Below are positions 26,817 through 43,855 of a stretch of DNA of 64,000 nucleotides, in pieces (the stretch's first letter is position 1; the number at the start of each line of letters is the position of its first letter). Below the pieces are notes generated by a model. That model worked only from the letters and a program-made list of their open reading frames with translations, did no database searches and was not told where the DNA came from. Made by a program: the position numbers and the translations under genes. Origin of the DNA: an uncultured Methylomirabilota bacterium (GTDB lineage Bacteria > Methylomirabilota > Methylomirabilia > Methylomirabilales > 2-02-FULL-66-22); NCBI GenBank assembly GCA_963705305.1, contig OY970067.1, positions 4,128,001 through 4,192,000 of the forward strand. The letters are read 5' to 3'.

Positions 26817-26892
26817 GGCGGCGTAGCTCAGTTGGCAGAGCGGGGGTCTCATAAGCCCTATGTCGGTGGTTCGACTCCACCCGCCGCCACCA
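26817..26892 (+). tRNA. tRNA-Met (CAT), probably elongator
   Basis: 76-nt cloverleaf; GGCGGCG/CGCCGCC acceptor stem, CTCATAA anticodon loop, GTTCGA T loop, encoded CCA. Confidence 0.93.
26848..26892 (+). repeat. attL core (tRNA 3' half)
   Basis: CTCATAAGCCCTATGTCGGTGGTTCGACTCCACCCGCCGCCACCA; 44/45 identical to 40730-40774. Confidence 0.92.
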
Positions 26893-26914: not shown

Positions 26915-28197
26915 TCAATCATTCCGGCTTTCCTCCAACGTGCCCGTGATTTTCCGGGCGGCCTCCTGGAGGTCGGCCTGGCTGACGATGTGGTAGCGGT
27001 CGAACACGCTGCGCGTCTTGTGCCCGGTCACAGCCATAGCCACCCGCTCGGGCACTCCCCGGTTGACCATGTTCCGGACGGCCGTGCGCCGGAAGTCATG
27101 GCGGAGCATCTTCAACAGCCCCGGCTTCTCACCCTTCGCCGCGGCCTGCTCCAATTCCGCCTTGCGGATCTCCCGCGCCGGGCCCTCCAGACTCTCCAGG
27201 TCAAGGGTGGCCTCCAGGCAGGCGAGGGCCCACGCCTTCCGAAAGTCGTTGATGCGCTGCCCCTGGTGGCGCCCGCTGAGGTTCGGGAAGAGGTAGGGGA
27301 CGCGCTGGCTCGTTCGCATTTCGAGAATCTGAATCCGCTCCTCTTGGGCCTGGAGCAGTTGCACCAGTTCGGGGGTGAGGTACACGAGGCGCCCCTCAGT
27401 GTTCTTGGTGGTTCCCGGGTCCAGCCGGAGGGTACAGGCCGAAAGGTTCACTTGCTCGCGCGTGAGGGTCAGGACTTCGCTCTGCATCCGCCAGCCGAGG
27501 GCGTAGGCGAGGCTGACCGCGACTTGGAGGTCAGGGCGGAGGTGGCGCTTCACGGCCTCGAATTGCCCCCGCTCGAAAAATCCCGACCGCGGGGCGGCCT
27601 CTTTCAGCTTCCGGAGGATCGGGAGGCGAATCAATTTTCCGTTTTCCACGGCCAGCTTGAGCATCCGCCCCAAGACGGCGATCTCCCGGTTGACGGTCCC
27701 GTTCGCCGCGTCCTCTGCCTTCCGCTCCGCGGTGTACTTGGCCACGTCGGCTGCCCCGATGCTGACAAGGCGCCGATTCGTGAAGAAGCGGGCCAGGTGG
27801 CGGAGGCGCTTCTCCGCGTCCTGAAGGTTGCGCTTTCCCGTCGTCTGATAGTAGGTGCGAAGGTCGCGCGCGGCGTCCTCGTACAGGATCCGATTGAGGC
27901 GGGGAAGAATAGGCTGGCCCGTGACGGCCTTCCCCTCCTGGTCCTTCAAGAACCGCCGGGCCTCGGTCTCTTTCTCGGTCTCGGTGCTCTCGCGCGTCGC
28001 CTTCCCGTTCACGTAATACTTGACCCACCACACCTTCCCGAACCGGGCCCCGCAGCCGGGGCACACGTCGGCCCGACCGTGGGCGGGGTGGTGGCACTTC
28101 CCGTCATCCTCCGGCCCCGGCTCAAGGACAGGTCTTCGGGGGTCAGCGTGAAGTCCGGTTGCTTCCCCTTGAGCATCGGCCGGTACAGGTAGCCCAT
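26915..28197 (-). CDS. Tyrosine integrase (apparent frameshift near the N-terminus)
   Basis: GWR, TTKN, HDFRR, GH and DRY catalytic residues; VWWVKYY arm domain. The SD-preceded ATG 28197 (MGYLYRP) is in a different frame from the body. Confidence 0.9.
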
Positions 28198-28268
28198 CCC
28201 TCACCCCTCCTTTACGCCGGGCCCCCGGCCAGGTCCCGCCGGCGCGGGGGCGCATTCCTAATGGCATT

Positions 28269-28454
28269 CTACTCTGTATCTTCTACGTTCAGGATGGGCT
28301 TAGGAGTACCCATGCCCATGGGAACCCAGTACCGCTTGCTCTGATGCCACGCGAACACCTTGCCCTTGTTCGTCAATCCGTATAGGGTCCCATTTGGTCC
28401 CACGGCGATCATCTTGAAGGTCAATTGCTCCAGTCTGCGCTTTCCTTTTTGCAT
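28269..28454 (-). CDS. Small hypothetical protein
   Basis: SD GGAGG; 61 aa, beta-rich. Confidence 0.55.
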   Translation of the reverse strand: MQKGKRRLEQLTFKMIAVGPNGTLYGLTNKGKVFAWHQSKRYWVPMGMGTPKPILNVEDTE

Positions 28455-28513
28455 CGCATCCTCCCTTCGGTCGGTGCCTACGCCACCAGCTCCCCCACCG
28501 TCACCCGGAGCGC

Positions 28514-28756
28514 CTATTTCAGCTCTTCGATCTTTTTCCGCAATTTGGCGAGGGCCTCTAGTCGAGGGTCTGTCGCCTCTTCCACCATGAACGCGGCCTC
28601 AACCGTCTTCACTGCCTGTTCGATCTCATCGGCAGTGATGACGCCTTTCTCCAGGAGCAGATACTTGAGCGCCTCGAATTGTCGGGCATACTGCAGGGCA
28701 AATCGCTCGATCTCCGACACGTAGGCGATAACTGCATCCCGCTCTTCCGGTGTCAT
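28514..28756 (-). CDS. Small hypothetical protein
   Basis: 80 aa helical (LLLEKGVITADE); start next to the XRE stop. Confidence 0.6.
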   Translation of the reverse strand: MTPEERDAVIAYVSEIERFALQYARQFEALKYLLLEKGVITADEIEQAVKTVEAAFMVEEATDPRLEALAKLRKKIEELK

Positions 28757-28959
28757 TCTAATAACCTCCCCGCCTTCACCTTGAGGGCCTTGGCGAGGGC
28801 CTTCAATACCTCAAGGGAGGGGTTCGCCTTGGCCCCGCTCTCCAGCATCGTAATGTACTCCCGGGTAACGCCCGCTCGCTCTGCGAGTTGCGCTTGCGTC
28901 ATCCCTTTTTCTTCCCGGAGCTGTTTCAGCATGTCGGGGAGCCTCTTCTTGCGTCTCAT
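28753..28959 (-). CDS. XRE-family HTH regulator
   Basis: LREEKGMTQAQLAERAGVTREYITMLESG..NPSLEVL..LAKAL. Confidence 0.9.
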   Translation of the reverse strand: MRRKKRLPDMLKQLREEKGMTQAQLAERAGVTREYITMLESGAKANPSLEVLKALAKALKVKAGRLLE

Positions 28960-28961
28960 AT

Positions 28962-28990
28962 AATGTAACCTCTGGTTACCTACTTGTCAA
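28962..28990 (-). promoter_or_regulatory. sigma70 promoter with palindromic operator upstream of the XRE gene
   Basis: TTGACA-17-TACATT on the minus strand; GTAACC-tct-GGTTAC at 28965-28979. Confidence 0.7.
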
Positions 28991-29060
28991 GAGGGATTCT
29001 GGCGGCCGATCAAGATTACCGCTCAGATTCCCCCGTCAGGCAAGAGCTGCCCCACGGATT

Positions 29061-30029
29061 CTATGTGAAACGGCGAACTGCTTCCCACAACTCCTCCGGT
29101 TCAATAATAAGGTTGCCCTCCTCCAACGGCTGATCCTCAGCCGCAAGCTTGAAGTTGATATTATATCGATTCTGGAACCCTGCCGGCCGTGGCGCGTAGG
29201 GAATCCGTTCCGTGCGCGTGATGTCCAGTGCGAGGCCGGGATGTATCACATCACCCTCTCTGCCGGCATATACAATTGGACGCTCCGAGGGAACCACGAG
29301 ACCACGAGGTAGCCCCTCATTGCGGTTTCCATCGAGACCGTACTCACCCAGATGAATGCTGCCCGGCAACTCCAACCGCAACATGGGATAGCGCGCGACT
29401 GCCCTTCCGGCGTTCCTGAGACTCAAGATGATGTCAAAGGAGGACCACGGTTGCCCTTCGATTTGCATCGGCTCTCGTTTTTCGACTCTCCACTCTAATC
29501 GAAGTTGTGGTCGCCGTCGTCGGCCAAACATGTCTGCAATATCGAAATGCTCCATCCTGTAGAAGCCGTCACCGGAGCGCTTCCAATATTCACGGCTCGC
29601 ACCTTTCAACATGCCCCGATGCGGACCGATGTCGCTCGCAGGAACATATACGATCACGTACCCATAGTCGGGGTTACCCTCGCTTGGGAACGATGAGACA
29701 TCCGCACCATCTACGGGCGGCATAACGGCCTGCCCGAGTAATGACTGGCAATCACTAGCCGCAGCGCGAAAGCCTTCGAACGGCTTTACGCCCGTGATTT
29801 CATCCGGCTGTCCCTTATCCGCCCGTTTCGCTGTGAGGCCGAAAATGAGCACGCCGCCGTCAGAATTTGCAAAGCCCGAGAGAGCCTGTGAGAGGTACCC
29901 CTTCAGGTCTTCGGTTAGTGGCCCCTTTCCTTCTTTTGCCTCCAGATACAACGTCTCACTCGTTCCAACCAATGCCAGTAAGCTGGCTGGATTTCGTAGC
30001 GACTCGAAAAGTTGACGGGCTTGAGTCAT
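29061..30029 (-). CDS. Schlafen/AlbA_2-domain protein with C-terminal beta-rich domain
   Basis: ETLYLEAK, SGFANSDGGVLIFG, PH, YWKRSG; visibly lower GC than its flanks. Confidence 0.82.
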   Translation of the reverse strand: MTQARQLFESLRNPASLLALVGTSETLYLEAKEGKGPLTEDLKGYLSQALSGFANSDGGVLIFGLTAKRADKGQPDEITGVKPFEGFRAAASDCQSLLGQAVMPPVDGADVSSFPSEGNPDYGYVIVYVPASDIGPHRGMLKGASREYWKRSGDGFYRMEHFDIADMFGRRRRPQLRLEWRVEKREPMQIEGQPWSSFDIILSLRNAGRAVARYPMLRLELPGSIHLGEYGLDGNRNEGLPRGLVVPSERPIVYAGREGDVIHPGLALDITRTERIPYAPRPAGFQNRYNINFKLAAEDQPLEEGNLIIEPEELWEAVRRFT

Positions 30030-30317
30030 TGCCTAATCCTCCCCCTCACTCGCTCATGCGCTGCAACGCCGCCTTGAGTAGTTCCCTAACTGTCAGCGGC
30101 CACCCTATACTGAGCCACCGGGGTCGGGGATACTGAGCCACCCAGGGTCGCCCAACCTGAGCCAGCAGGGTCACCCATTCTGAGCCACCCAGGGTCGGGC
30201 ATACTGAGCCACCTCGGGTCGCCTGATACTGAGCCACCCCAGCAGGCCGCCGGGTCCCTTGCGCTTCGCAGCCACATGGGGGCTTGCTCTCCGGGAACCC
30301 CAACCCGGAGGTGCCCC

Positions 30318-31890
30318 ATGGCTGGACGGAGGTGCGAGGTGACCGATGTACGCGAAGTGCTCCGCCGGCTCCGCCTCGGAGAGCCGGCCCGCCGGATCGC
30401 CCGCGAACTCGGGCTCAGTCGGAACACCGTGGCCGGCTACCACCGCTGGGCGCGGCAGCACGGCCTGCTCACCGGCGAACTGCCCGACGCGGCCGCGCTG
30501 GCCACGCTGCTCCACCCGCCGGAGCGCGCCCAGCCCCGGCTCGAGCAGTCCGGCGTGGCCCCGTTCCGCGCGCAGGTGGTGGCGTGGCGCCAGCAGGGTG
30601 TGGAGGGCCAGGCGATCTTCCAGCTCCTCGTCGAACAGCATGGCTTCACCGGGAGCTACTCCGCCGTGAAGCGCTTCCTCCGCCGCCTGGAGCCGCCGAC
30701 CCCGCGGGCCACGGTCCGGGTGGAGACGCCCCCGGGGGAGGAAGCGCAGGTCGACTTCGGCGCGGCGGGCCAGTTCTTCGATCCCGACCAGGGCCGCCTC
30801 CGCCGCGCCTGGGCGTTCGTGATGACGTTGGCCTTCAGCCGCCACCAGGTCCGTGGAGTTCGTCTTCGACCAGACCGTGACCACCTGGTGCCGCTGCCAC
30901 CGCGCCGCCTTCGAGTGGTTCCAGGGGGTGACGCGCCGGGTGGTGCTCGATAACCTGAAGGCCGCCATCGTCCACGCGGCCCTCTACGACCCGGAGGTCC
31001 AGCGCGTCTACCGAGAGTGCGCCGAGCACTACGGCTTCCTCATCGCGCCCTGTCGGGTGCGGACCCCCGAGCACAAGGGCAAGGTCGAGCAGGGGGGCGT
31101 CCACTACGTGAAGCGCAATTGCCTCGCCGGCCGGGCCTTCCGCGACCTCCACCACGCGAACCAGCACGGCCTCCGCTGGTGCCTGGAGACCGCCGGGAGG
31201 CGCCGCCACGGCACGATCAAGCAGCAGCCCCTGGTGGCCTTCGAGACGGTCGAGCGGGCCGCGCTCCTCCCGCTCCCGGCGACCCCGTGGGCGCCGGTGA
31301 CCTGGAAGCAGGCGAAGCTGCACCCCGACTGCCACGTCGTCTTCGCTGGCGCCTACTACTCGGCGCCCTTCCGCCTGATCGGGCAGCGGCTCTGGGTGCG
31401 GGCCACGGCCACCCAGGTGCAGCTCTTCCACGAGCACGCCCTGGTCGCCACGCACCTCGCGGCCCGCCCCGGGCAGCGGCGCACACTCCACGACCACCTC
31501 CCCCCGGACAAGGTCCACTTCCTGCTGCAGACGCCGCTCTGGTGCCAGCAGCGGGCCGCCGACATCGGCCCGACCTGCGCCGCGTTCATCGCCGCCCTGC
31601 TGGGGGAGCGGCCCCTCGATCGGCTGCGGACCGCCCAGGGCGTTCTCCGGTTGGCGCCGCGCTACGGCGCGGCGCGCCTCGAGGCCGCCTGTGCCCGGGC
31701 GCTCGCGGTCGGCGAGATCCGGTATGCCACGGTGAAGACCATCCTGGCCGCGGGCCTCGATCGGCAGCCGCTGCTCGAGTTGGGGCTGGCGCCTCCGCCG
31801 CCCCCTGCCGCACCGCCCCCGCGGCATGCGCGCCCCTGGACCGACTTCTTCCCCGACCCCGGTGGCGAAGGAGGTCCCCCATGGAACTGA
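30318..31890 (+). CDS. istA: IS21 transposase IstA (+1 frameshift near 30851)
   Basis: HTH, ETPPGEEAQVDFG, then DNLKAA, KGKVE and DCHV in the second frame. Confidence 0.9.
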
Positions 31891-32674
31891 CGCACCAGCT
31901 CACCCCGATGCTCCGCACGCTCCGGCTCTCCGGGATCCTGGAGACCCTGGAGGTGCGCAACCACCAGGCGATCGAGAGCCGCGCCTCGTTCGTCGAGTTC
32001 CTGACCCTGCTCCTGCACGACGAGGTGGAGCGGCGGGCCCAGTCCGCCCTCCGGCTCCGCCTCCGCCGCGCGGCCTTCGATCCTGGCAAGACGCTCGAGG
32101 GCTTCGACTTCGGCTTCAACCCAAAGTTGAACAAGGCCCAGGTCTTCGACCTCGCCACCTGCCAGTTCGTCGCACGGCACGAGAACGTGTTGATCTACGG
32201 CCCGACCGGCGTGGGCAAGAGCCACCTGTCGCAAGCCCTGGCGCACGAGGCGTGCCGCCGCGGGTACGAGGTCCTCTTCGTGTCCACCGGGAAGCTGCTG
32301 GCCCCCTGGCCGGCGGCCGGGCCGACGGCACGCTCGCCCACCGGCTGGCCAAGTACCTGCGGCCCGATGTGCTCGTCCTGGATGACTTCGGGCTGAAGGC
32401 CCTCCGGGCCCCCGGCCCCGAGGACCTCTACGACATCATCCACGAGCGGTACGAGCGCGCGTCCATCGTGCTCACGAGCAACCGGGCCGTGAGCGAGTGG
32501 CCGGAGATCTTCGGCGAGCCGCTCCTGGCCTCCGCGGCCTTGGATCGGCTGACCCACCGGGCCCACTTCGTGGAGATCACGGGGGCCAGCTACCGGGCCG
32601 AGCAGACCAAGCAGCAGCTCGCGGCCCAGCGGCGCAGTAAGCCGTCACCGAAGCAGGAGGCACGCCCAGCGTAA
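31881..32674 (+). CDS. istB: IS21 helper ATPase IstB (1-bp deletion near 32303)
   Basis: GPTGVGKS, then LVLDDFG, TSN and LDRLTH in the second frame. Confidence 0.9.
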
Positions 32675-33061
32675 AGGTCCGGACAACCCACTTGCGAGGG
32701 ACCCGGCTACGTCCTTCGCTGGCTCACCATGGGGTGACCCTGAGTGGCTCTCAATGGCCGGCCGTTGACACTAACCTGCCGGTCCCTTTCCACTTGCTGC
32801 TCCCCCCGAGTGCGTCGGCTGAGGGCCGCCCGACAGCGGGGGCTGCATGCCGACCGTTGCCGGCCCACCAGGGGCACCCCGCACTCGGGGCAGACGCGAG
32901 AAACCGCCTTTCCTGGGACGATCTCCGCTGGACGGCTACAGCCGGGCGGGTGTGTCCCGTTTGTTTCTGGAATCCTATCACAGATGCCCTCTGGAGCCGC
33001 ACGTTCGCTTTCTAGCAGGGGGTCAGGTATCAGCATGAGCGATTCATCCTCCTAGGGGATT

Positions 33062-34235
33062 CTAGTCTAGTGTGTCATAAATACGGTGACTTATAGTACG
33101 TACTCTGGTATGCTCCTCGGTGAGGAGGAGCAAGCCATGCGTGTGGCGGTGCCGATTGTGCTGAGCCCGCAGGAACGCACCATCTTGGAACGCTGGGCAC
33201 GGGGGCGGCGCACCCCCGCGCGCCTCGTGCGCCGGGCGCAGATCGTCCTGCGCGCGGCGGCGGGGCAGCGGAACGACGAGGTCGCCCGGGCCCTGGACAC
33301 GGATCGCGAGTGTGTGGGTCGGTGGCGGACTCGCTTCGCCCAGCAGCGGCTGGCCGGGATCGAGCGGGATGCCCCGCGCCCCGGCCGGACGCCCGCCATC
33401 GCCCCGGCGGTCCTGCAGCGCATCGTCACCCTGACGACAACCAGCGCGCCGCCCGCCGCCACCCACTGGAGCACGCGGACCCTGGCGGCCGCGGTCGGCG
33501 TGAGCCCGAAGACCGTGCACCGGGTCTGGCAGGCCCACGGCCTGAAGCCGCATCGGGTCCGCCCGTTCAAGGTGAGCCGCGACCGGCGGTTCCTCGAGAA
33601 GCTGACCGATGTGGTGGGGCTGTACCTGAATCCCCCTGAGCACGCGTTGGTGCTGTGCGCCGACGAGAAGAGCCAGATCCAAGCGCTCGACCGCACCCAA
33701 CCCGGCCTCCCGCTGAAGAAGGGCCGGTGCGGCACCCTGACCCACGACTACAAGCGGAACGGCACGACCACGCTCTTCGCCGCCCTGGGGCTCGTGACGG
33801 GCCAGCTCATCGGCACGTGCCTGCCCAAGCATCGGCACCAGGAGTGGCTCCGGTTCCTCCGGCTGATCGACGCGCAGACCCCGCCCGACCTGGACCTCCA
33901 CCTGATCGTGGACAACTACGCCACCCATAAACACCCTGCGGTCCAGCGCTGGCTCGCCCGCCACCCACGCTTCCACATGCACTTCATTCCGACCAGCAGC
34001 TCGTGGTTGAATCTCATCGAGCGGTGGTTCCGGGAGCTCACGACCAAGCGGCTCCGCCGGGGCGTCTTCAAGAGCGTCGCCGACCTCATCGCCGCCATTG
34101 AGGCCTTCATCGCACACCACAACCGCCACCCCCGGTCGTTCACCTGGACGGCCAAGGTGGAGGACATCCTGGCGAAAGTCGAGCGGGCTCGAGCAGTGCT
34201 GCATAAGATGGCATCTGTGTGACACGGTAGACTAG
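33062..34235 (+). mobile_element. IS630-family insertion sequence
   Basis: Imperfect terminal IR CTAGTCTA..GTGTCA / TGACAC..TAGACTAG; TA target duplication within CTAG. Confidence 0.9.
33137..34222 (+). CDS. IS630 transposase, intact
   Basis: [45 protein letters not shown]. Confidence 0.95.
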
Positions 34236-34461
34236 GGCAAGATTGCCAGGGCTGCCCTATGGTGGGGGTGGGAGTGTCGCTCGCCTCTGTGACCAACCGG
34301 ATCGCAATGCAGGGCCCGTCCATCCCGACTAGAGCTGTCGCGCGTGAGGTCAGGTCTCGGGGGGCCTCCCGGGGGAGGTAGTGTCCAGCGCCCATCCACC
34401 AGGGCCAGGATACCCGGGCCCGCCCACACGCCGATATGCTCAATCTTTGGTGCCTTCCGCA

Positions 34462-34656
34462 TCATTGCTCCCCGGTCGGTCCTGGCGTCGGGATCTCCAG
34501 CCGGCGCGCGAGGGCCAGGCGCCGCCTCCAGTGCTTGCCCCGGCGGATCGCCTCGGCGTACTCGGCCCGGGTGAGCAGCAAGACAGCCCCCTTGAGGCGA
34601 ATTGGAATCAAGCCGGCGGGGGCGTCTGATGGTACAAGCGCCGGTTTCTCGTTCAC
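34462..34656 (-). CDS. Small basic hypothetical protein
   Basis: GTG after GGAGG; LLLTRAEYAEAIRRGKHWRRR. Confidence 0.5.
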   Translation of the reverse strand: MNEKPALVPSDAPAGLIPIRLKGAVLLLTRAEYAEAIRRGKHWRRRLALARRLEIPTPGPTGEQ

Positions 34657-34690
34657 AAGCCCCACGGCGGCCCTCCACGTTGCCCCACGT

Positions 34691-34852
34691 TCAACGATCG
34701 CGCTTCCGCTTGGCCTTCGATACGGGCCTGGTGGGCGGCTGCTCGCACTTCCGGCAGAGACCGGACAGGCGCTCTGCGGGGGCCAGGGGGCCTCCGCATG
34801 CATCGCAGCGGTCCAGGCCGCGGAAGATCAGGGGAGGCGTCCCCTTCATCAT
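34691..34852 (-). CDS. 53-aa zinc-finger protein
   Basis: MMKGTPPLIFRGLDRCDACGGPLAPAERLSGLCRKCEQ...; ATGA overlap with the upstream stop; below the ORF-track cutoff. Confidence 0.6.
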   Translation of the reverse strand: MMKGTPPLIFRGLDRCDACGGPLAPAERLSGLCRKCEQPPTRPVSKAKRKRDR

Positions 34853-35420
34853 GCGAGCGGCCCGGGTTCGAGGTCGGGGATCCGCGTCTCCATCGTTATG
34901 TCATGGCGCTCCGGCTTCTCCACCACGGTCGGCCGCGTGTCCGGGGCCGCGCTCTTCAAGCGCTCGGTCAACTCCCGGAGGTCCTGCTCCACGGCCGCGG
35001 CCAGCCGCCGCAGGGCGCCGATGTTGGACCGAAGGGCGTCCATGGTCGGTTTCTGCATCATCCGCAGGTGAAGGCCCTGGTAGACGTCCGAATCACTCAA
35101 GGTGTCAACCCGCCGGATGAATTCGCGGTACGCTGCTACGCCGCCGTCCATGCAGCCGGCGAGCATCCCGTCCCCGCCGAGCTGCCGAAGATGGCCCTGG
35201 AGCCCTGAGTGGACGATACCAAGCCGGGCAGCCGCGTGGAATTTTGCCTGGGCGTTCAGGAAAAGGGGGCGCACTTGGGATACCACGCTGAGGATTTCCT
35301 TGAGTCCTCGTTCCGCTTCCGCACGGGCAGGGGCCAGCGCCCGCTTGGCCTCCGCCACGGGGGCCGCGGCCTGCGCCGCGACGGTCGACACGCCTGTTGA
35401 AACTCTCTGTCGGTATTCAT
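34849..35420 (-). CDS. Helical hypothetical protein (probable 1-bp deletion near 35391)
   Basis: SD-preceded ATG 35420 (MNTDREFQQA) joins VSTVAAQAAAP if one G is restored. Confidence 0.6.
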
Positions 35421-35433
35421 CGGTTTTCCCCTT

Positions 35434-35928
35434 TCACTTCATGCGCCGGCCGAGGTCGACCAGCAGTTTGATTGCCGTCACATCATCTGGGAATGCCTGC
35501 GCGACTTGCTTGATTATGCCCTCACGTCCCTTGAAGATGTCCGCCGCCGTGCGCTGGGCCAGGGCCATGTTTGCTTCATAGTCGCCGCCCCACTCCTGGC
35601 GGAGGGCCGTCACCACCTCCCGCCGGTTCTCGGTCTCTTCCGGTGTCTCGCCGGGCAAGGCGTCCGGTGTGTCCAGTTTCGCCACCGGATCGGGGGCGGG
35701 CCGAGGAAATTCGGTGTGAAGCTCTACGCCGTCGGATATGGGAACCGGCTCGCCCGGTGGGATGCGCCCATAGAGCCTATCCACATGATCCAGCGTGGCC
35801 TTGTCCCCGCGTTTCCAGCCCTGATAGTGTGGGTTCTGTGGATTCGACATGATGTCCGACAACTCCGCTTTCGCCGTTTGGTGCGCCGTCTCCTCCCGGG
35901 TGGCGCTCCCCGCTTCCTCATTCGGCAT
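35434..35928 (-). CDS. Putative phage scaffold-like protein
   Basis: SD AAGGAG; segments AKAELSDIMSNPQNPHY...VDRLY and LRQEWGGDYEANMALAQR...IKLLVDLG. Confidence 0.55.
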   Translation of the reverse strand: MPNEEAGSATREETAHQTAKAELSDIMSNPQNPHYQGWKRGDKATLDHVDRLYGRIPPGEPVPISDGVELHTEFPRPAPDPVAKLDTPDALPGETPEETENRREVVTALRQEWGGDYEANMALAQRTAADIFKGREGIIKQVAQAFPDDVTAIKLLVDLGRRMK

Positions 35929-35931
35929 GAC

Positions 35932-36537
35932 TCATTCTCCTTTCGTTCTGGCGGGACCGGCCCGCATGGCCTTGATGGCGCCATACGCGGTTTGTACGGC
36001 CGTCCAGGCGGTCGCGTCCCCGCCCGGGTCGGGATGCTCCCGCTTCGCGCGGGCCTTGAAGAGTAAGGTAATCACCTCTATGCTGGCCTGCGGGTGAACC
36101 CCTAACACCTTGAACGGGTCCGGCCCGTTCGGGTGCGTGCCCGATCGCCACGTCTGAGCCTCGGTCAGCAATTCACCGGCCAACTCTTCCAGTTGCGCCG
36201 GCCCGGTCAAGCGGGCCGCCAGCGCATAGGGCTTGCCCTCGGCAACGAGCTTCCGCCCGTGGGCGCCGTCTGGCCGAATCACAAAATTGATGCCGTTCAC
36301 TTCCACGAGAGCGGGAGAGGGATAGCGCGAGGTGGGGGCGCGCCTCGAAAGGGGGCCCCCGGGGGTCGTCCTGGTGAATCGACTCGCTCGTGCGAGGCCG
36401 GGGCGGGGAGCCGCGGGGCGAGGGTGAGCTCCAGCCCCCGATACGCAGCTTGTCCCCGCCACGTCCTCAAGGCCACGCGCCACGACTCGCCAGGCCGTCC
36501 GCGTATGCTCCAGGTCCATTATGCTCGGTCCTTCCAC
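35932..36537 (-). CDS. Protein with C-terminal J-domain
   Basis: DPFKVLGV...AKREHPDPGG...VQTAY, with the HPD motif. Confidence 0.75.
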   Translation of the reverse strand: MEGPSIMDLEHTRTAWRVVARGLEDVAGTSCVSGAGAHPRPAAPRPGLARASRFTRTTPGGPLSRRAPTSRYPSPALVEVNGINFVIRPDGAHGRKLVAEGKPYALAARLTGPAQLEELAGELLTEAQTWRSGTHPNGPDPFKVLGVHPQASIEVITLLFKARAKREHPDPGGDATAWTAVQTAYGAIKAMRAGPARTKGE

Positions 36538-36875
36538 GCTTCCACGAGTCGGTCAAGGTCTGCTCGGTCAAACAGGAGTTTCCGCAGCTCGCCACCAGCC
36601 GGCAGCGGGATCCGCACCCGCTGGAGTACGTCACGAGCTGCGAGGTCATAGACGCTCGCCCCCGGCAGACTGAGATACAAGGCCGCCCCGTGCACGTCCA
36701 GGAGGCGAGGGAGTAGGGGAGCATTGGCTTCTAAAGCCACTGTTCCGATTTCTGGCCCTTTGTTCTCAAGGGCTTCCGCATCCGACGTGCCTGTAACGTG
36801 CCCATACTCGGCCTTCCGTGGCCGTCCAGGATGCGGGCGCCGGGCGCTCGGCAGGTACACGGGCTGCTCACTCAC
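36519..36875 (-). CDS. Excisionase-like HTH (HTH_17/MerR-like) protein
   Basis: PRLLDVHGAALYLSL...VYDL...LLFDRADLDRLVE. Confidence 0.75.
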   Translation of the reverse strand: MSEQPVYLPSARRPHPGRPRKAEYGHVTGTSDAEALENKGPEIGTVALEANAPLLPRLLDVHGAALYLSLPGASVYDLAARDVLQRVRIPLPAGGELRKLLFDRADLDRLVEAWKDRA

Positions 36876-36989
36876 ACGACACCCCACGGCTGGAGGCCCC
36901 CGGACAAGGCATAGTCAAGCGGCCTTGCGGCGTCCCGAAATGGCGAGGCGAGGCCGAATTTATGCCCGTCTCTGCATCTCTCTCCACAT

Positions 36990-37177
36990 GTTGGCAGTTG
37001 GCAGAGTTGGCAACAGGGGGTCCTATAGACCCCCTTGTGTTGCCACAAACTCATTTTCACGCTGCCACCAGCTTTATTCATTTCTGCGTAACCCATCAGA
37101 ATTCATACAGTTGGCAGTTGCCACAACTCCCCCTTGCCAGCTTGCCAACTCATAGGAATGCCGCTTGCGAGTTGGCA
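36990..37177. other. Putative replication origin with iterons
   Basis: About ten GTTGGCA/TTGCCA copies in both orientations, hairpin GGGGGTC-ctata-GACCCCC and an AT-rich core, just downstream of the helicase. Confidence 0.65.
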
Positions 37178-38604
37178 ACGACTTCCAAGGGCTTCCGCTG
37201 CCCATGATCCGTGAGCTTCTTCTCCCGGATCGCGGAGGCCGTGGCGTCCCTGGCCGTCCTGTCGGAACACCCGAACCGCTTGGACACCTCTGCGTAGAAG
37301 TCCAGGCGCTTGCCGGTCCAGACCCCGTTCAGTTCCTCACTCATCCACGCCACCAGGGCCGCAGTAGAACACAAGGTCTCGGCCTCATCCACGGGGCGGA
37401 ACACCAGGGTTTCCTTATCCAGTTCGAGCGTCAGAGGCTCTTTCCACCTCGGCGCGAAATTCGTCTTGACCAGGTTCAGCCGATAGAGGTTTGGACCGTT
37501 CTTGGATTGCTCCCGTAGGGCCAGCTCGAAATCGGCCCAGGCCCGGAGGGCCGTGGTCCCCCGACCGCGGGCGTCGTCCCCATCGGGGGCCCATCCGGCA
37601 TGATGGACGACCAGCAGCGCCGCTCCCGCCTGCCGGCAGACTTCCCGGAGCGGCACCAGCCACCGCATCATCTCCGAGCTGCTGTTCTCCTCCGCCTCGT
37701 GGAGGTACACCAGCGGATCGAAGAGCACCACGTCAACCAGGGCATGCCGACTGAGCGTCACGCCCAACCGCTTCAGGGCGCCGTCCAGCGGTCGGCCTTT
37801 CGGGCCGCCGAACCGCATGGGCTCCCGCCGCGTAAACAGGATGATGTTCTCCGGGATCTCTGCCCCGGCCAGCATCATCCGTAACCGCTCCTGCACCATG
37901 CCCGGGGCGTCCTCCACCTGGAACACCAGAACCCGCAGGGGGCGCGCCGCTGGCATCGCCTGACCCAGGGGCAACGGGAAGCCGGTCCAATGGAGCGCCA
38001 AGTTGAGACCACAGACGCTCTTGCCGTGGCCGCCTGCCCCGGTCAGGAGGCCCACGCCTACTTCCGTCAGGCCAAGGGACGGCACCAACCGGACGGCGCC
38101 AGCGAACGAGGTCCGCATGAATTCCGGGCCCGGCAACACCTCATAGGGCTGGATCTCCTCCTGCCGTTTTTCGAGTTTCCCTCGCGTACCAGGGCCGGGC
38201 ACTTCGGCTGCTGCGTCCACCGTCGTCTCCTCGCCGTGGTCGACGTCTTCCCGTTGTGCTTCCTCTCGCCCCTTGGCCCAGGCCCGGAGGGTCTTCTGCA
38301 GCTTGGTCTGATGGAGTTTCTTTTTCCCAGGTCGGCTGTAGAGGTCACAGAGTAGCCACGTCGCATCTTCGACCGAGAGTCCGGCATGCCCTGCGTGGTA
38401 GGCCAGCGCATAGGCGCGCTCGCTGTCGCTGGAGTAGCCGTCGCGCGTGCCGTCCCAGGTCTCCCGCAAGCGGGCGTTGCCCTTGAGCACGCGCTCCCCA
38501 CGCTCCGACAACTTCTCCGGCCGCTCGGGAGCGTTCACGTCGGGCCGCGCCTCATCGGCCTCCGTCCAGGGGATGCTGTCGAATTCCGTTAGATCGTAGG
38601 CCAT
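37150..38604 (-). CDS. RepA/AAA_25-type (RecA-fold) replicative helicase with N-terminal primase-accessory helical domain
   Basis: GAGGHGKS, QVED, VLFDP, EENSS, LVVHHA, ARG; N-terminal SDSERAYALA. Confidence 0.82.
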   Translation of the reverse strand: MAYDLTEFDSIPWTEADEARPDVNAPERPEKLSERGERVLKGNARLRETWDGTRDGYSSDSERAYALAYHAGHAGLSVEDATWLLCDLYSRPGKKKLHQTKLQKTLRAWAKGREEAQREDVDHGEETTVDAAAEVPGPGTRGKLEKRQEEIQPYEVLPGPEFMRTSFAGAVRLVPSLGLTEVGVGLLTGAGGHGKSVCGLNLALHWTGFPLPLGQAMPAARPLRVLVFQVEDAPGMVQERLRMMLAGAEIPENIILFTRREPMRFGGPKGRPLDGALKRLGVTLSRHALVDVVLFDPLVYLHEAEENSSSEMMRWLVPLREVCRQAGAALLVVHHAGWAPDGDDARGRGTTALRAWADFELALREQSKNGPNLYRLNLVKTNFAPRWKEPLTLELDKETLVFRPVDEAETLCSTAALVAWMSEELNGVWTGKRLDFYAEVSKRFGCSDRTARDATASAIREKKLTDHGQRKPLEVVANSQAAFL

Positions 38605-39182
38605 GAAACCAGCCTCACTTGACAGTCAGGATACTTGTGATTAAAGGTGCCCGGGATCCGAAGCACCCGGCTCCGATCGGTCGCCGCGGGGTCGGCCTCG
38701 AGGGCGCACACAATACCCTTGAGCCGCCCCTCGAATGCCTCATCGGCATGTACGGCCTGCTTGAGCTGCCAGTAGACGTGGTATCCACCTCCGGTGGCGA
38801 CGATCCAAGTCGGAGGCAAGGGGAATTCTCCCAGCTTCCGGAGGGCCCCCGCCTCGCCGTCCGAGAATCGCTTGAAGTCCAGGTCAGCCCATAAGCCGGG
38901 GGCATGCGTCACGCTGGTCTTGTCCCCTTGTGGCCGGATGCGAGGGCATACGCCGAAGTAACAGTCGTACTCCTCCACCAACTCACAGGCTCGCCAGTAG
39001 AGCTCGCGGGTCGCGCCCAGGGTGAAAAATTCCTGGTGGACGGCCTTGTCAGTAACGCGGATCGCGCGGAGCTTGAGGAGTTGATCAGCGGGGCAGGCGG
39101 CAAACCAGGATTCGAGAAACGTGGTCGGCCGCGGCGGGAGAGCGGTCTTGGTTGTGAGCAGGGGGACGGTCGCCGTACTCAT
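38589..39182 (-). CDS. RepB-like (AEP superfamily) DNA primase
   Basis: YFGVCPR, LWADLD, TGGGYHVYW, D..RVLRIPGTFNHK. Confidence 0.85.
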   Translation of the reverse strand: MSTATVPLLTTKTALPPRPTTFLESWFAACPADQLLKLRAIRVTDKAVHQEFFTLGATRELYWRACELVEEYDCYFGVCPRIRPQGDKTSVTHAPGLWADLDFKRFSDGEAGALRKLGEFPLPPTWIVATGGGYHVYWQLKQAVHADEAFEGRLKGIVCALEADPAATDRSRVLRIPGTFNHKYPDCQVRLVSWPTI

Positions 39183-39382
39183 CGGCCGCTCGCGACGGCT
39201 TCTTCGAGACGGAGTTTCTCCGCCGCCGCTTCGAGTACTGTGACTAAAACGCGGCGGGCATGTCTAGGGTCCTTCGCCAACAGACGTGCCCACTGAGGCG
39301 AGACGCCAAGGCGGGCGGCGTAGTCGATAGACTGCACGCCGAGCAGCCGGGCAAGTACCAGAGGGTCGGTAGTGGTTCGCAT
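39179..39382 (-). CDS. Small Cro/HTH-like protein
   Basis: YAARLGVSPQWARLL; ATGA overlap with the primase gene. Confidence 0.55.
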   Translation of the reverse strand: MRTTTDPLVLARLLGVQSIDYAARLGVSPQWARLLAKDPRHARRVLVTVLEAAAEKLRLEEAVASGR

Positions 39383-39386
39383 GCCG

Positions 39387-39412
39387 CAAGGGTAGAGACA
39401 CTCCTACCCTTG
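39387..39412 (-). promoter_or_regulatory. Inverted repeat (operator) over the promoter of the replication operon
   Basis: CAAGGGTAG-N8-CTACCCTTG; TACCCT lies 6 nt before ATG 39382. Confidence 0.5.
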
Positions 39413-39442
39413 GAGCAATCCCTTGGAAATTGCGCTCAGTTT

Positions 39443-40241
39443 CTATTTTCCAGATTTTTTGCGGGAGAGACGGAGGCCCACCGCGTTCAGGTAGCGAATC
39501 TTTCCGCGGAGGCGCTCCCGGGCTTTCGGGTCGGAGGGAATCGTTACGCTGAGGATCTTTCGGGCGACCTGCCACACGTCCATGCCGTCCTGTGTGCCCT
39601 GATATACACGTCGCGCGAGTTCTGGATCAACTTGCGACTTGCCAGACTTCGGGGGCTTCGCTTGTCCCTTCGGACGTTCCTGGGGCTCGCGCGGGTAGTC
39701 GAGCGCTCTCTAGACTGGCAATCTCCAGCCAATGCTTGCGCGTGGGCATTTCGCCGGCTGGCACCTCATAGCGAAACGCACCGGTGATGCGGTCCTCGGT
39801 GATACGAATCGGATTGTCGGGGAGGGGAGTGCCGACCGTCACGGATTTCGGCACTCTCCGAGCCGCTCGGCGGAGACGTTCCCTCATTCCCTCATCTGTG
39901 GCCTCTTTTTCCAGGATGGCCAACGCCGCCTGCTGAGGTAGGAGAGGGCGATCCTCACAGACCCGATGAAACTTCGGGACGTACTCTTTGATGCGATCAA
40001 GTAGGAGCCAGGACAATTCAGCAAGCCGGTCCACTGGCTCGGGCCCCAACGCTTCCCATCGGGGTTCGAGTTTTCGCACGAGCTTATAGACCGGATGGTC
40101 ACACAAATTGAGATGCTCGGCCAGGGCGGCGGCGAAATAGTAGAAATGGCTTCTGACCTGTGGATGCTGCGTAAGCTCTAGAGCCAACTCTGCCGGCCGG
40201 ATAACCGTTCTGTCCAGAAACTTTGTTTGTCTGAGAACCAT
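39443..40241 (-). CDS. Hypothetical regulator-like protein (probable frameshift near 39700)
   Basis: ORF 39627-40241 continues in another frame as ...VDPELARRVYQGTQDGMDVWQVARKIL...LRGKIRYL..* (HTH-like). Confidence 0.5.
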
Positions 40242-40318
40242 CGCTCTCCCTGTAGAGCTCCCCTGGAGGTCTCGCGGGCCAGGTCGGCAGAGTCCGGCTT
40301 CCGGTCGCCATCAATTAG

Positions 40319-40585
40319 CTAATAGAAGGGCGTTCTGTTCTTGCGCCTTCCCCTGATGTCTGTGGCCTGCTCAAGCTCACGAATCCTTCGATCCTTCTCA
40401 AGCAGTAGTTCCTCAATCCCTGCAATCTTAGTCTTTGCTTGGGCTAGGGCGTCCAACAGTTCGGCCAGTTTCATTTTGCTCTCGGCCTTTTCGGGCGAAG
40501 CATCTGCGCGCCTGATTGACCGGGCGATCCCTGTTGCTGTCTTGATACTCGCCAGGACATCTTGAATGGAGGCCAAGTCCGACAT
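40319..40585 (-). CDS. Coiled-coil hypothetical protein
   Basis: SIKTATGIARSI...KLAELLDALAQAK...LLEKDRRIRELE. Confidence 0.55.
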   Translation of the reverse strand: MSDLASIQDVLASIKTATGIARSIRRADASPEKAESKMKLAELLDALAQAKTKIAGIEELLLEKDRRIRELEQATDIRGRRKNRTPFY

Positions 40586-40729
40586 GTCCATCTCCCTGTC
40601 AAAACGTGCCCGCAAACGTGCCCACGGCGAAAGAAAACCGCCGGAAATCACGCCACTTCAGCGGAAAGCATAGCACATAACCCCTTGTAAATACACGATA
40701 TTGAAAGGGTAGGGGAGGCCTGGCTTGGC

Positions 40730-40774
40730 CTCATAAGCCCTGTGTCGGTGGTTCGACTCCACCCGCCGCCACCA
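40730..40774 (+). repeat. attR core (displaced tRNA-Met 3' half)
   Basis: CTCATAAGCCCTGTGTCGGTGGTTCGACTCCACCCGCCGCCACCA. Confidence 0.92.
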
Positions 40775-40820
40775 GACGTGATCGCTCGTTGACCCTCGCC
40801 AGAGGCTCTCTGGGATCGCG

Positions 40821-40859: not shown

Positions 40860-41312
40860 TCAGGCGAGGTGCTCGCCCCGGTTGCGGCCTTCGGCCGCCA
40901 GCAAGCGCTGCACGGTGGTTTTCAGCAGGACCAGGGTGGCCTCCGGGTAGCGGAGCAGGAACGCGCGGAATCGCTGGTAATCGAGGCAGAGCAGCACCAC
41001 GTCGGTCGCCGCCTGGAGGGTGGCGGTGCGGGCCATATTCGAGAACATGCCATATTCGCCCAGCAGCTCTCCCCGCTCGACGGTCCGCACCGGCCGGGAT
41101 TGCCCCGGCAATACGACGTTAAGCATGCCGCTGGCCACGACATAGACACTGCCGGAGACCTCGCCCGCCTCGAACAGGATCTCTGATTCCCGCAAATGCT
41201 CCGTCCGCATCATTTCCGCGAGGGTGGCAAGCTCCGCCGGCGGAACGCCCGTGAACACCGGGCAGGCGCCCAGGACACTGGTCTTTTCGGCCATGCTCAG
41301 GGTGGTTCTCAT
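40860..41312 (-). CDS. Stand-alone cyclic-nucleotide-binding domain protein
   Basis: LFEAGE..YVVASG, GELLGEYG...RTAT; no HTH; ATGA overlap with the ABC stop. Confidence 0.87.
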   Translation of the reverse strand: MRTTLSMAEKTSVLGACPVFTGVPPAELATLAEMMRTEHLRESEILFEAGEVSGSVYVVASGMLNVVLPGQSRPVRTVERGELLGEYGMFSNMARTATLQAATDVVLLCLDYQRFRAFLLRYPEATLVLLKTTVQRLLAAEGRNRGEHLA

Positions 41313-43855
41313 GCTCGCTGAAGCGTGGTGCGGAAGATCTCCGACGCTTCCTCCAGCTCCTGGAACGTGCCGCTGGCCGCCAGCCGGCCGCCATGCATGA
41401 GCTTGATGTCGTCCGCCTCGCGGATGAAATTCAGATCGTGGCTGACGGTGATGACGATCCTGTCTCGCCTCCACTGCCGCAGCAGCTCGGCAACCGCGCT
41501 GCGGCTGGCAGGGTCGAGAGCCGATGTCGGCTCGTCCAGCACCACGATCGGTGTGCGGCGCAAGAGCGCGCGGCAGAGCGCCACCGTCTGGCCCTGACCG
41601 CCGGAGAGGTTGCTGCCCAGCCGCCCGACCTCGCACTCCAGGCCGAGCCGTGTCAGGCAGTCGTTCAACCCCGCCTGTTCGACAAAGCCCAGCAGGCTTT
41701 GATCCAGGAGGCGGCTCGCCCGAGTATTGGGGACCTCCACGACGCCAAAGATCAAATTCTCCCGCCAGGTCAAGCCGGGGTGCACCTCGTCGGCGACAAA
41801 GGGGCGCCAGGCACCCGCCAGGAGCTGCTGCAGCAGCTCGATATCAGCGGCAAACACCTTGCGGGTTTCGGGCGCTCGCAAGGCCTCCACACCTCCATCG
41901 CTCGCTAATTCGGCTAAAGAGCTAGTCAGGCCGATCAGCAACAGCGACAATCCTTGCTTGGGCGACACGGCGGGTTTGTCAGCCAGATCCACGCAGGATG
42001 ATCGCAGCTTCCACAAGGGCTCGCTTACCGAGAAGGGAGAGAGCTGCGCATACACGTGGTAATTGGAGATACTGAGCAGGTGCCGGTTCTCGCGCAGCAG
42101 GCTCTTTCCCAGCGCCATCAGCGCCGAGCGGCTGCCGTTTGGCGGCAGGCGTTCCAGCCGGCGGGCGGCTTTCTTGCTTAACAGCAGCTCCACGCACTTG
42201 GCCCGCTCGCAGCGGCCGCCCAGCAGGCATTCCAGCACCCAGTGCTGCGAGTCCACGCTGCCGTGCTCGAAGGGCAAGACCAGAGCCTGGCACTCGTCCC
42301 GCAGGCGCTGGCGAAGGCTATTCCGCAGCTCGCCGATGCGCGCGGCGATCGCAGGCTGCGCGCCGCCTTCACCCGCCGGCATGTCCAGGGCCTTCAGCCG
42401 GCAAATCTTGCCCAAGCCTGCCCGCTCGACCACCTCCATGTCGGCGGCGGAAAGGGGGATCTCGCCTTCGGTCTGTCCAAAGTAGAGGTTTTCGCGGATC
42501 GTCGTATTCAAGAGGGCCACGGATTGCGGCATGATTGAGAAGAGGGCTGCGCGCCGTCGGTCATCGATCGCCTGGAACGGGAGGGATCCGTAGCGGACGT
42601 CGCCTTCCTGCGCTTTCAGGCGCCCCAGCACCAGTTTCAGCAGGGTGGATTTGCCGGAGCCCGCGCCGCCCACGATGGCGGTCCAGCGATCCGGACTGAA
42701 CACGGTGCTGACGCCGGCCACGCCGCCTTGTTGCGTGCCATCGGGGCTGGTATAGCGATAGGTGACGTTGTCCAGGGTGATCGGCTCGGCCGCCCCCTCC
42801 TGAACTGCCGAGTCTGCCGAGCTACCAGTCTCGACGCTCTGAGTCTCGTACTCAAGGAGCCGGTCCAAACTGACGCGCGCAATCTGGAAATCCAGGCGCA
42901 GGAAGACCAGCTCCGAAGATTCGCTGAACAGCGAGGGCAAGCGCAGCACGATCACCGGCACCAGGGCGAGAGAAAGACCGCTGATCCCCCCGCTCCGCAT
43001 CTGATATACCACCACGATCATAGACGCAAACGCCAGCAGGTACGCGACCGTATTTCTAATCCGCAGAGCCCCGTTGAGCCCGATGTACTTGAGAAACGTC
43101 CTGCTCCGGTCCTCCAGAAGCTGCAGGAACCGTCGCCGGATGTTCTCGTACGCATTTGAAACCTGAACTTCGGGCGCGGCCCGCAGCAGATCCTCGAAGC
43201 GTGACTTAATTCTGTCATCCTGGACGAGATAGTTCTGGTCCATGTTGGCCACTGGTTTGGTCGTTCGCAGCGTCCAAAGAACTCCGACAAGACAGGTCGC
43301 AATGGCCACGAGCGCCAGCCGCCAGTCCTTGAGAAAGAAGAAGACCAGATTGCCGGCCACCAGCAGCGAGCTCCACCAGACCTTGGTTACTCCGAGGCGG
43401 CGCTCACTTACTCGAGAGAGGTCCACGGCCAGCCGGTTCACCATTTCCGCCGGAGAATGACGGCTGAAAAAGGAGTCCTCTTTTCGCAGCAGGTGGAGCA
43501 GGATTTCCGTCTCCAGATCGTCCTTGGTGCGAATGGCGAGCTTGCCGCCGAGACGGGCTCTCCAGAACTCCACCGCGCCCGACGTGAGCCGGGCAGCCAC
43601 GAACAGGCCCAGAAGCAGGAAGGGCAGGCTGATTGCCAGCGAATCGGCGAGCGTGTGCGAAAGTGCCGCCAGGCCGTGCTGGGCAGCGGCAGCCGGCGCT
43701 TGCCCTTGGCCCAGCGATTGCGTCAGCAGGTCGAGCAGATCGTTCTCAACGTAAACAAGCACAGATGCCAGGCTGCCGGCAAGGATCAAGGAGATCAGCG
43801 CCGCACGGTAACGCGGGTGCCAGAGGGCGAACCAGGAAGCCAGCCCCGATTTCAT
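41309..43855 (-). CDS. Fused ABC exporter (TMD+NBD) with large insertion in the NBD
   Basis: TM helices; GGAGSGKST; RENLYFG...RENLIFG; LSGGQ; LDEPTSALD; VSH. Confidence 0.88.
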   Translation of the reverse strand: MKSGLASWFALWHPRYRAALISLILAGSLASVLVYVENDLLDLLTQSLGQGQAPAAAAQHGLAALSHTLADSLAISLPFLLLGLFVAARLTSGAVEFWRARLGGKLAIRTKDDLETEILLHLLRKEDSFFSRHSPAEMVNRLAVDLSRVSERRLGVTKVWWSSLLVAGNLVFFFLKDWRLALVAIATCLVGVLWTLRTTKPVANMDQNYLVQDDRIKSRFEDLLRAAPEVQVSNAYENIRRRFLQLLEDRSRTFLKYIGLNGALRIRNTVAYLLAFASMIVVVYQMRSGGISGLSLALVPVIVLRLPSLFSESSELVFLRLDFQIARVSLDRLLEYETQSVETGSSADSAVQEGAAEPITLDNVTYRYTSPDGTQQGGVAGVSTVFSPDRWTAIVGGAGSGKSTLLKLVLGRLKAQEGDVRYGSLPFQAIDDRRRAALFSIMPQSVALLNTTIRENLYFGQTEGEIPLSAADMEVVERAGLGKICRLKALDMPAGEGGAQPAIAARIGELRNSLRQRLRDECQALVLPFEHGSVDSQHWVLECLLGGRCERAKCVELLLSKKAARRLERLPPNGSRSALMALGKSLLRENRHLLSISNYHVYAQLSPFSVSEPLWKLRSSCVDLADKPAVSPKQGLSLLLIGLTSSLAELASDGGVEALRAPETRKVFAADIELLQQLLAGAWRPFVADEVHPGLTWRENLIFGVVEVPNTRASRLLDQSLLGFVEQAGLNDCLTRLGLECEVGRLGSNLSGGQGQTVALCRALLRRTPIVVLDEPTSALDPASRSAVAELLRQWRRDRIVITVSHDLNFIREADDIKLMHGGRLAASGTFQELEEASEIFRTTLQRA

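Follow-up and report, generated by a model that had tools for sequence, protein, structure and literature searches.

What does a pair of phage head-assembly modules, joined in the opposite order, do in a genomic island in which no head gene is detected? The question is raised by an open reading frame (ORF) on the minus strand (35434..35928) of a 64,000-nucleotide stretch of Methylomirabilota DNA (contig OY970067.1), hereafter the window, which encodes a scaffold-derived protein of 164 aa with an ATG start. We propose, with an even chance of being right, that this target protein is a mini-scaffold composed of two scaffold-derived modules in opposite order, which is encoded in a satellite-like island and re-shapes or poisons the head assembly of a helper phage. 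The ORF is a real gene, with a GC content per codon position of 0.69/0.45/0.76, an AGGAG 9 nt 5′ of the ATG and the stop codon of the close-coupled upstream ORF201 (35932..36537, minus strand) 3 nt before it. Its translation contains both segments on which the original prediction was built, AKAELSDIMSNPQNPHYQGWKRGDKATLDHVDRLY in the N-terminal and LRQEWGGDYEANMALAQR...AIKLLVDLG in the C-terminal part, and the Pro-rich stretch said to join them is found at about residues 55–95. The protein thus reads, from the N-terminus, module A (residues 9–54; 35767..35904, minus strand), linker (residues 55–95; 35644..35766, minus strand) and module B (residues 96–163; 35440..35643, minus strand). An AlphaFold2 model based on a 32-row alignment (mean pLDDT 83.1) predicts two confidently folded helical modules, with helices at 9–28, 35–40 and 43–54 in module A (pLDDT 86–98) and at 96–131, 136–145 and 150–163 in module B, connected by a linker predicted to be disordered (pLDDT about 50–70) and to lack secondary structure.

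The origin of the modules is revealed by profile searches. A Pfam scan of the target returned no family. Among the PHROGs, phrog_3742, a family annotated as of unknown function, is matched by target residues 100–163 with its positions 169–229 of 287 (E 5e-7). The informative homologues are long podovirus capsid-assembly proteins, referred to as long forms in distinction from the target-like short forms. Profile-profile comparison with hhalign placed short-form positions 8–67 (module A) on long-form positions 247–305 with a probability of 99.0% (E 3.6e-18), and the C-terminal half of the short form (module B) on long-form positions 173–234 with a probability of 97.3% (E 2.1e-11). Across the genome from which the window derives, the sole match of the long-form profile is the target ORF, hit in two pieces of swapped order, profile positions 206–276 falling on the N-terminal (E 8.3e-15) and 153–223 on the C-terminal part (E 8.8e-10). 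In the long-form alignment, module A constitutes the extreme C-terminal tail, preceded by a Gly/Ser-rich stretch, and module B lies in front of this tail. Both modules of phrog_3742-type scaffolds, the terminal module A (..DIM.NP.NP.H....GD.A....V..LY) and module B (L..EWG..Y..N...A), are matched by the target. The original prediction had given for podoviruses an L..EWG..Y..N segment followed by a terminal segment, had claimed the reverse order for the target and had named as a check whether each half on its own matches phage head-assembly proteins. The order in podoviruses and the reversal are borne out by the profile-profile and genome-wide long-form profile matches, module-specific hidden Markov models (HMMs) agree on the reversal, and the separate matches are those to phrog_3742 and in hhalign given above. 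Profile comparison shows homology of both target modules with the C-terminal part of capsid-assembly proteins from podoviruses, in reversed order.

The identity of the long forms as head-assembly proteins is indicated by family matches and gene position. Of six long forms scanned, all match phrog_3742 and five match phrog_458, labelled 'protease'; one also matches the T7 capsid assembly family PF05396 (8e-5), with a score that falls short of the cut-off. A tblastn search with the long form P0038 found 113 phage records, with Pelagibacter phages as the largest group (22), whose annotations read 'capsid assembly protein', 'putative protease' or hypothetical. The long-form gene of two annotated phages, Baldr of Pelagibacter (OQ414636) and YeP4 of Yersinia (MK733262), has the head-tail connector gene on one side and, on the other, the major capsid gene or the large ORF that comes next, and in the viral contig L019 the gene order is TerL-like (phrog_2472), portal (phrog_332), long form and major head protein (phrog_3437, PF19821). 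In these three, the long forms occupy the scaffold position between portal and major capsid gene at which the original prediction had expected the matching proteins. The target itself falls short of full membership in the phage scaffold family, from which it deviates in three features. In place of the full-length architecture (an N-terminal and middle part of about 150 aa, then B, then A), it covers about positions 153–276 of the 280 of the profile; its modules are swapped; and it is flanked by ORF201 and ORF180 (34849..35391, minus strand), not by portal or capsid genes.

Other search routes contributed little. The target had no tblastn match at E≤1 in 50,697 phage records, matched only itself in a word-indexed search of 5.8 billion clusters, and gave nothing relevant in Protein Data Bank (PDB) sequence searches, made with the target and with the short-form and long-form profiles. 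Its predicted fold found no match at E≤0.001 with Foldseek in BFVD and PDB, and the best Z of 5.0 over 58 residues in a wide VIA-align search is in the range expected of common helical arrangements; no known scaffold is among the fold matches listed, which shows nothing in either direction. All leads of the protein atlas for the target scored below 0.9, among them one cluster (0.85) with PF05396 on 16% of its members.

The reversed order is not confined to the target. A phmmer search over 1.84 billion representatives, in which each match stands for one cluster at 50% identity, yielded 80 proteins at E≤1e-3, 10 of them at E≤1e-10. When sorted with HMMs cut from the short-form alignment, 55 of the 80 (target included; mostly 122–190 aa) carry A then B and 11 carry B then A, the rest having only an N-terminal A (11), only a C-terminal A (2) or only B (1); these proportions are biased towards short forms because the proteins were selected for their similarity to the target and the HMMs derive from short forms. 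Tyr53 and Gly114 are kept in at least 90% of 32 aligned rows, and identity to the target is 24–38% among 31 aligned relatives. Thirty look-ups of A-then-B proteins led to metagenome contigs of 0.6–40.7 kb, where they are 'hypothetical' or unnamed; the longest of these contigs are those of P0053 (40.7 kb), P0082 (25.3 kb), P0032 (17.0 kb), P0019 (13.9 kb), P0040 (12.2 kb), P0010 (11.7 kb) and P0054 (11.6 kb). Searches of 2.9 million IMG/VR contigs recovered none of six short forms (P0002, P0006, P0008, P0032, P0053 and P0082, five of which originate from JGI/IMG metagenomes) as such, and tblastn of P0008 against the 50,697 phage records returned nothing. Further searches, with P0002 and P0040 in genome contigs, with P0002, P0008, P0032, P0053 and P0082 in viral contigs, and with P0006 in viral and metagenome contigs, gave nothing or only long forms and other proteins. 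The alignment A3 found one long form in genome contigs, located at a contig end, and of 401 genomes sampled from the phylum of G251, 25 match, all with frames of 248–384 aa, i.e. long forms.

Satellite-like island and related loci

The target gene resides in an island of about 13.9 kb (26845–40774) integrated at a tRNA-Met (CAT) gene (26817..26892, plus strand; ARAGORN, Rfam tRNA 68.1 bits). The 3′ 48 nt of this gene (26845–26892) serve as the left attachment (att) repeat, and a 48-nt copy with 96% identity (40727..40774) forms the right one (direct repeat D2, spacing 13882). Next to the tRNA gene lies a tyrosine integrase of 450 aa (26915..28267, minus strand; PF00589, E 3.6e-10), and replication genes are found towards the other end, encoding an AAA_25 (RepA/DnaB-like) helicase (37150..38604, minus strand; PF13481, E 1.4e-25; phrog_239 primase/helicase, 1.4e-12) and a protein with a RepB-type primase domain (38589..39182, minus strand; PF16793, E 8.3e-6, above cut-off). 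No capsid, portal, terminase or tail family was detected by Pfam and PHROGs in the island ORFs tested, and the largest island ORF without an assigned family has 265 aa, so that none comes near portal size. The original description as a capsid-less element agrees with the att boundaries of the island and with the failure to detect a capsid, portal or terminase gene inside them. With an integrase and att repeats, its own primase/helicase and no detected structural genes, the island has the layout of a phage satellite.

Related loci occur elsewhere in the phylum, in which the short-form profile matches 5 and the long-form profile 4 of 251 genomes. At six further loci a scaffold-like gene is accompanied by an integrase or island-type neighbours, and three of the six are delimited by tRNA att repeats at lengths of 6.9–13.0 kb. 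The locus L016 (genome G241) is a 13.0-kb island at tRNA-Leu with an integrase, a Cro/CI-type helix-turn-helix (HTH) protein, a 241-aa scaffold-like protein in which a middle part lies between A and B (A-mid-B), and an AAA_25 helicase fused to HTH_17. L017 (G019:C76), from the genus of the window, is a 12.8-kb island at tRNA-Val with two integrases, a DUF3854+AAA_25 primase-helicase, an HTH_17 protein and a scaffold-like ORF that displays A, a middle part, B and a second A-like end. L015 (G108) is a 6.9-kb island at tRNA-Val, followed by the remnants of a second integrase copy. In L013 (G110) the integrase lies 0.5 kb from the scaffold-like copy, and in L075 (G133:C3, 9831-10635) a C-terminal integrase fragment (6e-20 to that of the window) abuts a 125-aa B-then-A fragment, so that the locus resembles a degraded member of this family of islands. 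In G102, the scaffold-like gene seems to be split across two contig ends, as L014 (G102:C40) and L010 share the peptide RQEIQASFGEFG; in L014 it adjoins a SIR2-like gene (8129-9136, minus strand; PADLOC Aga_SIR2/SIR2, best E 3.9e-12).

The islands are also connected by their other genes. The integrases of L015, L016 and L017 are related to that of the window, with 51% identity for L015 and 40% for L016. The Cro/CI-type HTH protein of the window (68 aa; 28753..28959, minus strand; PF01381, E 2e-20) is common to related islands, with phmmer E-values of 4.5e-18 to L017 4376-4579 and 1.7e-12 to L016 6595-6801, and L017 has the small HTH and Cys-rich ORFs in common with the window. A 122-aa ORF of the window (36519..36887, minus strand) gives a weak match to the AlpA/excisionase-type HTH_17 (PF12728, E 0.045, 14.5 bits versus a cut-off of 27), and at the matching place a clear HTH_17 is found in L017 (1.8e-11) and, fused to the helicase, in L016 (3e-6). 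No major capsid or portal family was detected in the scanned ORFs of the related loci, L017 included. L017 carries a TerL-like gene (8455-9792, minus strand; phrog_2472, 1.1e-35; phrog_2, 1.5e-25) directly upstream of the scaffold-like gene, and phrog_2472 is also matched by the TerL-like gene upstream of the portal gene in the phage contig L019, which points to that type of podovirus as source or helper. A satellite with its own large terminase but without a capsid gene would be unusual.

The same TerL-like gene can be read differently, namely that A-then-B proteins are ordinary scaffolds of small or unrecognised viruses or capsid-forming elements that parasitise no helper and have capsid genes diverged beyond detection. 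The prevalence of the A-then-B order (55 of 80) on metagenome contigs, one of them 40.7 kb long, would fit this explanation, as would the unassigned ORFs of 282–306 aa adjoining the scaffold-like gene of L016, of which the 282-aa ORF matches phrog_418 'internal virion protein' (4.7e-15). However, the unassigned ORFs of the window island stay well short of portal size, and neither the six short-form queries in IMG/VR nor tblastn of the target and P0008 against phage records retrieved a virus with a short form. We therefore judge an ordinary scaffold to be clearly improbable.

Proposed action on helper head assembly

If the target is a mini-scaffold, it most likely engages the capsid protein and/or the scaffold of a helper podovirus, the data being compatible with re-shaping as well as with blocking of assembly. 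We infer the existence of this helper, the binding to its capsid and the outcome, size change or interference. Scaffolds of other systems bind the capsid protein through a terminal module and self-associate through another part, and the mechanism suggested here is modelled on this division of labour. A helper podovirus with a phrog_3742-type scaffold would infect the host of the island; module A would then bind the major capsid protein of the helper where the tail of the helper scaffold binds, and module B would associate with itself or with the helper scaffold. The N-terminal part of about 150 residues of the phage scaffold is absent from the target, and procapsid assembly of the helper would either be re-shaped to the benefit of the island, as by CpmB of SaPI1, or be poisoned.

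The assignment of module A was approached by complex prediction for the phage contig L019. Its cognate major head protein and residues 222–278 of its scaffold gave a score of 0.54, compared to 0.00 for the best of three controls, and the runs agree in at least 91% of the contacts with a partner pLDDT of at least 79. The mark applied to such scores is reached by 116 of 157 solved complexes and 2 of 215 mismatched pairs; among those reaching it with a score of 0.60 or less are 18 of the 157 solved complexes and both passing mismatches, counts that hold roughly here since author-made alignments were used. The prediction thus lends weak support to module A as the capsid-binding end.

A helper was sought in the genome itself and in its relatives. 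The whole 5.65-Mb genome contains no match to Terminase_6C, Phage_capsid (HK97) or Phage_capsid_2 and no second phrog_3742-type gene; the corresponding search with Head-tail_con (PF12236) was uninformative because its control gave no signal anywhere. A same-genus contig considered as candidate helper (L071, G004:C38) was discarded, as it matches neither scaffold profile. On this phage-like contig, the large terminase gene (1895-4312, plus strand) is interrupted by an intein (Hint_2, Intein_splicing); after it come genes for an SPP1-type portal, a PF06810 scaffold and a capsid protein.

Binding to phage head proteins need not serve assembly. The scaffold-like modules might instead bind the capsid or scaffold protein of an incoming phage to detect infection, and so induce the island or set off an abortive or interfering reaction, an explanation that draws on the same binding logic from module homology. 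It would accommodate the Cro/CI-type HTH protein and a neighbouring Schlafen/AlbA_2-domain protein (29061..30029, minus strand; PF04326, E 3.3e-7), a putative cargo gene, as well as the SIR2-like gene with PADLOC SIR2 matches next to the G102 copy, and the J-domain-like end of ORF201 could provide a coupling to host chaperones. On the other hand, none of the eight window ORFs scanned (the target and seven others, the Schlafen/AlbA_2 protein among those without a match) belongs to a PADLOC family, the target has neither a fused effector domain nor an obvious effector partner, and satellite proteins known to be homologous to a helper scaffold act in assembly, as described for CpmB (PMC5644958). 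A role in sensing or defence is accordingly considered unlikely, though less so than an ordinary scaffold.

Several observations weigh against the mini-scaffold proposal itself. The term 'capsid-less' denotes a failure of detection together with the absence of unassigned ORFs above 265 aa, and ORF180, the N-terminal part of ORF201 and the ORFs at 30171-30968 and 39627-40241 are island sequences without a family. No phrog_3742-type phage was found in the genome of the window or in the 20 same-genus genomes searched, and the sole long-form match within the order comes from G052, where a 1.8-kb contig end comprises the N-terminal part of a long form. Which module binds the capsid is an assumption adopted from other scaffolds, and the complex prediction is weak. 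Small or atypical genes of the related loci were left unscanned because the ORFs had been pre-filtered by codon-position GC and greedy overlap removal. The relatives found on islands vary in architecture (A-mid-B, A-mid-B-A and one B-A fragment), so that the swap may not be what matters functionally. Some of the 54 other A-then-B proteins, known from metagenome contigs of 0.6–40.7 kb, could be ordinary small-phage scaffolds, and the island, with two insertion sequence (IS) elements, may be decaying.

Further genes and state of the island

The two IS elements lie between the Schlafen/AlbA_2 gene and the target. The first is an IS21-like insertion (30853..32674, plus strand) composed of an IstA-like transposase piece (PF22483, 1.4e-18; rve, 1e-4) and a frameshifted IstB, whose IstB_IS21 match is split across two frames (1.4e-31 and 4.4e-29); the second encodes an IS630-family transposase (33086..34222, plus strand; DDE_3, 7e-20; HTH_32, 2.2e-14). 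Together they part two small Cys-rich ORFs of the window that adjoin each other in the same-genus L017, one of 109 aa (32707..33036, minus strand; no Pfam match; phmmer 8.7e-6 to L017 4626-5099) and one of 53 aa (34691..34852, minus strand) taken from the ORF list, which resembles a small ORF of L017 (tblastn of L017 4973-5260 against window 34736-34879, 53% identity over 49 aa, E 1.7e-9). The island of the window may therefore be impaired or decaying.

This damage leads to the suspicion that the whole island is a degraded prophage remnant and the target a rearranged scaffold leftover without present function. Apart from the two IS insertions with the frameshifted IstB, the decayed version in G133, with its integrase fragment beside the 125-aa fragment, and the remnants of the second integrase copy after L015 are in line with such a history. 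The target ORF, however, is intact, provided with a Shine-Dalgarno sequence and close-coupled to its neighbour, and both modules are predicted to fold with a pLDDT of about 90. Moreover, the A-then-B architecture recurs with conserved positions in 54 other diverged proteins (24–38% identity among the 31 aligned), and islands of 7–14 kb with intact att repeats are repeatedly found. A functionless relic thus appears very unlikely.

The two genes flanking the target offer limited information. ORF180, the next gene downstream, has no Pfam or PHROG match above noise, a GC content of 0.75/0.48/0.82 at the three codon positions, a single homologue (56% identical) among 5.8 billion clusters and no usable match in the protein atlas. 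ORF201 has a J-domain-like C-terminus (PF00226, E 9.3e-4, below cut-off; phrog_9210, 1.8e-7), in which an HPD tripeptide is read in the translation. A co-chaperone-like protein encoded beside a scaffold mimic might be relevant to assembly or replication.

In the island, a cluster of ~24-nt repeats (CTGAGCCACC...GGGTCG...) was noticed at 30098-30238, within a 72%-GC stretch to the left of the IS21-like element, and 25-nt repeats are present near both ends of the island L016 (3564-3622, 16314-16338 and 16558-16582). Both repeat types may be iterons or integrase arm sites. A scan of 34200-40800 for promoter and terminator consensus sequences found none, and the Rfam scan detected the tRNA alone. 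One DNA metagenome run, which contains part of the island, carries a third of the sequence words, and no RNA run is among the matches listed. The contigs of that run cover the island patchily and contain neither a joint across the island nor a circle junction, which says nothing on excision or expression. To the right of the island (40860-48210, minus strand) follow genes for a protein that binds cNMP, an ABC transporter whose membrane and ATPase domains are fused, and two members of the radical-SAM proteins (550 and 719 aa); the stretch may represent a peptide-modification cluster.

Relation to known satellites

The original prediction had likened the target to three satellite proteins, P4 Sid, SaPI CpmB and PLE TcaP. 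The comparison with CpmB, an internal scaffold, fits in kind, whereas Sid and TcaP are external scaffolds, not derived from the internal scaffold of the helper, and resemble the target at most in outcome. Both Sid and TcaP are described as satellite-encoded proteins that set a small capsid size (PMC7552001, PMC10945586). CpmB of SaPI1 is reported to share the C-terminal capsid-binding motif of the 80alpha scaffold and to compete for its site on the capsid protein (PMC5644958). By analogy, the target would be closest in kind to CpmB, as an internal scaffold that a satellite carries and that either derives from the helper scaffold or has converged on it. Both are small helical proteins of capsid-less integrative satellites with a module in common with the helper scaffold, the helper of the target being a presumed one. 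They differ in that CpmB shares only a C-terminal helix-and-hook of ~16 residues (RIIK motif), whereas the target possesses two modules of about 45 and 65 residues in swapped order, and in that the presumed helper is a podovirus with a T7/HTVC010P-type scaffold and not a siphovirus. Furthermore, the function of CpmB is demonstrated, whereas the target is known from its sequence and from predictions. A relation in sequence to CpmB would not be expected; no CpmB entry is among the matches listed in the PDB sequence and fold searches, which does not exclude a relation, as no direct comparison with CpmB was made.

With the phrog_3742/phrog_458 scaffolds, distantly related to PF05396 (T7 gp9), the target shares modules A and B by homology, but it lacks their N-terminal and middle ~150 residues, reads A-then-B in place of B-then-A and has no portal or capsid gene at its flanks. 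P4-like satellites and the phage-inducible chromosomal islands (PICIs) of Gram-negative bacteria resemble the window island as tRNA-integrated elements of ~10-14 kb with a tyrosine integrase, a primase/helicase and a morphogenesis-like gene; their AlpA-type HTH has a clear counterpart at the matching place in L016 and L017, where the window gives a weak match. Unlike P4, the window island carries a replication module of RepB primase and AAA_25 instead of an alpha-type fusion protein, and it belongs to a host of another phylum. Homologues of sid, psu, delta or PICI capsid-morphogenesis genes did not turn up by name, no search having been aimed at them. Satellites that lack capsid genes and are packaged as concatemers have also been reported from the sea (PMC9618062).

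A literature search, conducted mostly at abstract level, found no link between phage satellites and the phrog_3742-type scaffold. Satellites that remodel the capsid of a helper are known from few systems, P4, SaPIs/PICIs and PLE, whose helpers are mostly sipho- and myoviruses of well-studied pathogens. It is conceivable, if rather unlikely, that the A-then-B mini-scaffolds (55 of 80) are the hallmark of unrecognised, environmentally widespread satellites that parasitise podoviruses with T7/HTVC010P-type scaffolds, that the swap is an adaptation to a size-determining or assembly-poisoning internal scaffold, and that some of these satellites, such as L017, possess a hijacked TerL-like gene. If the target acts as proposed, its gene would be a hijack gene that derives from a scaffold and targets a family of podovirus scaffolds common among environmental phages, in a host of a little-studied phylum. 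The A-then-B module order would then be a sequence marker usable for finding such elements in metagenomes, and the swap would constitute a natural experiment on which scaffold modules bind the capsid protein and which set its geometry.

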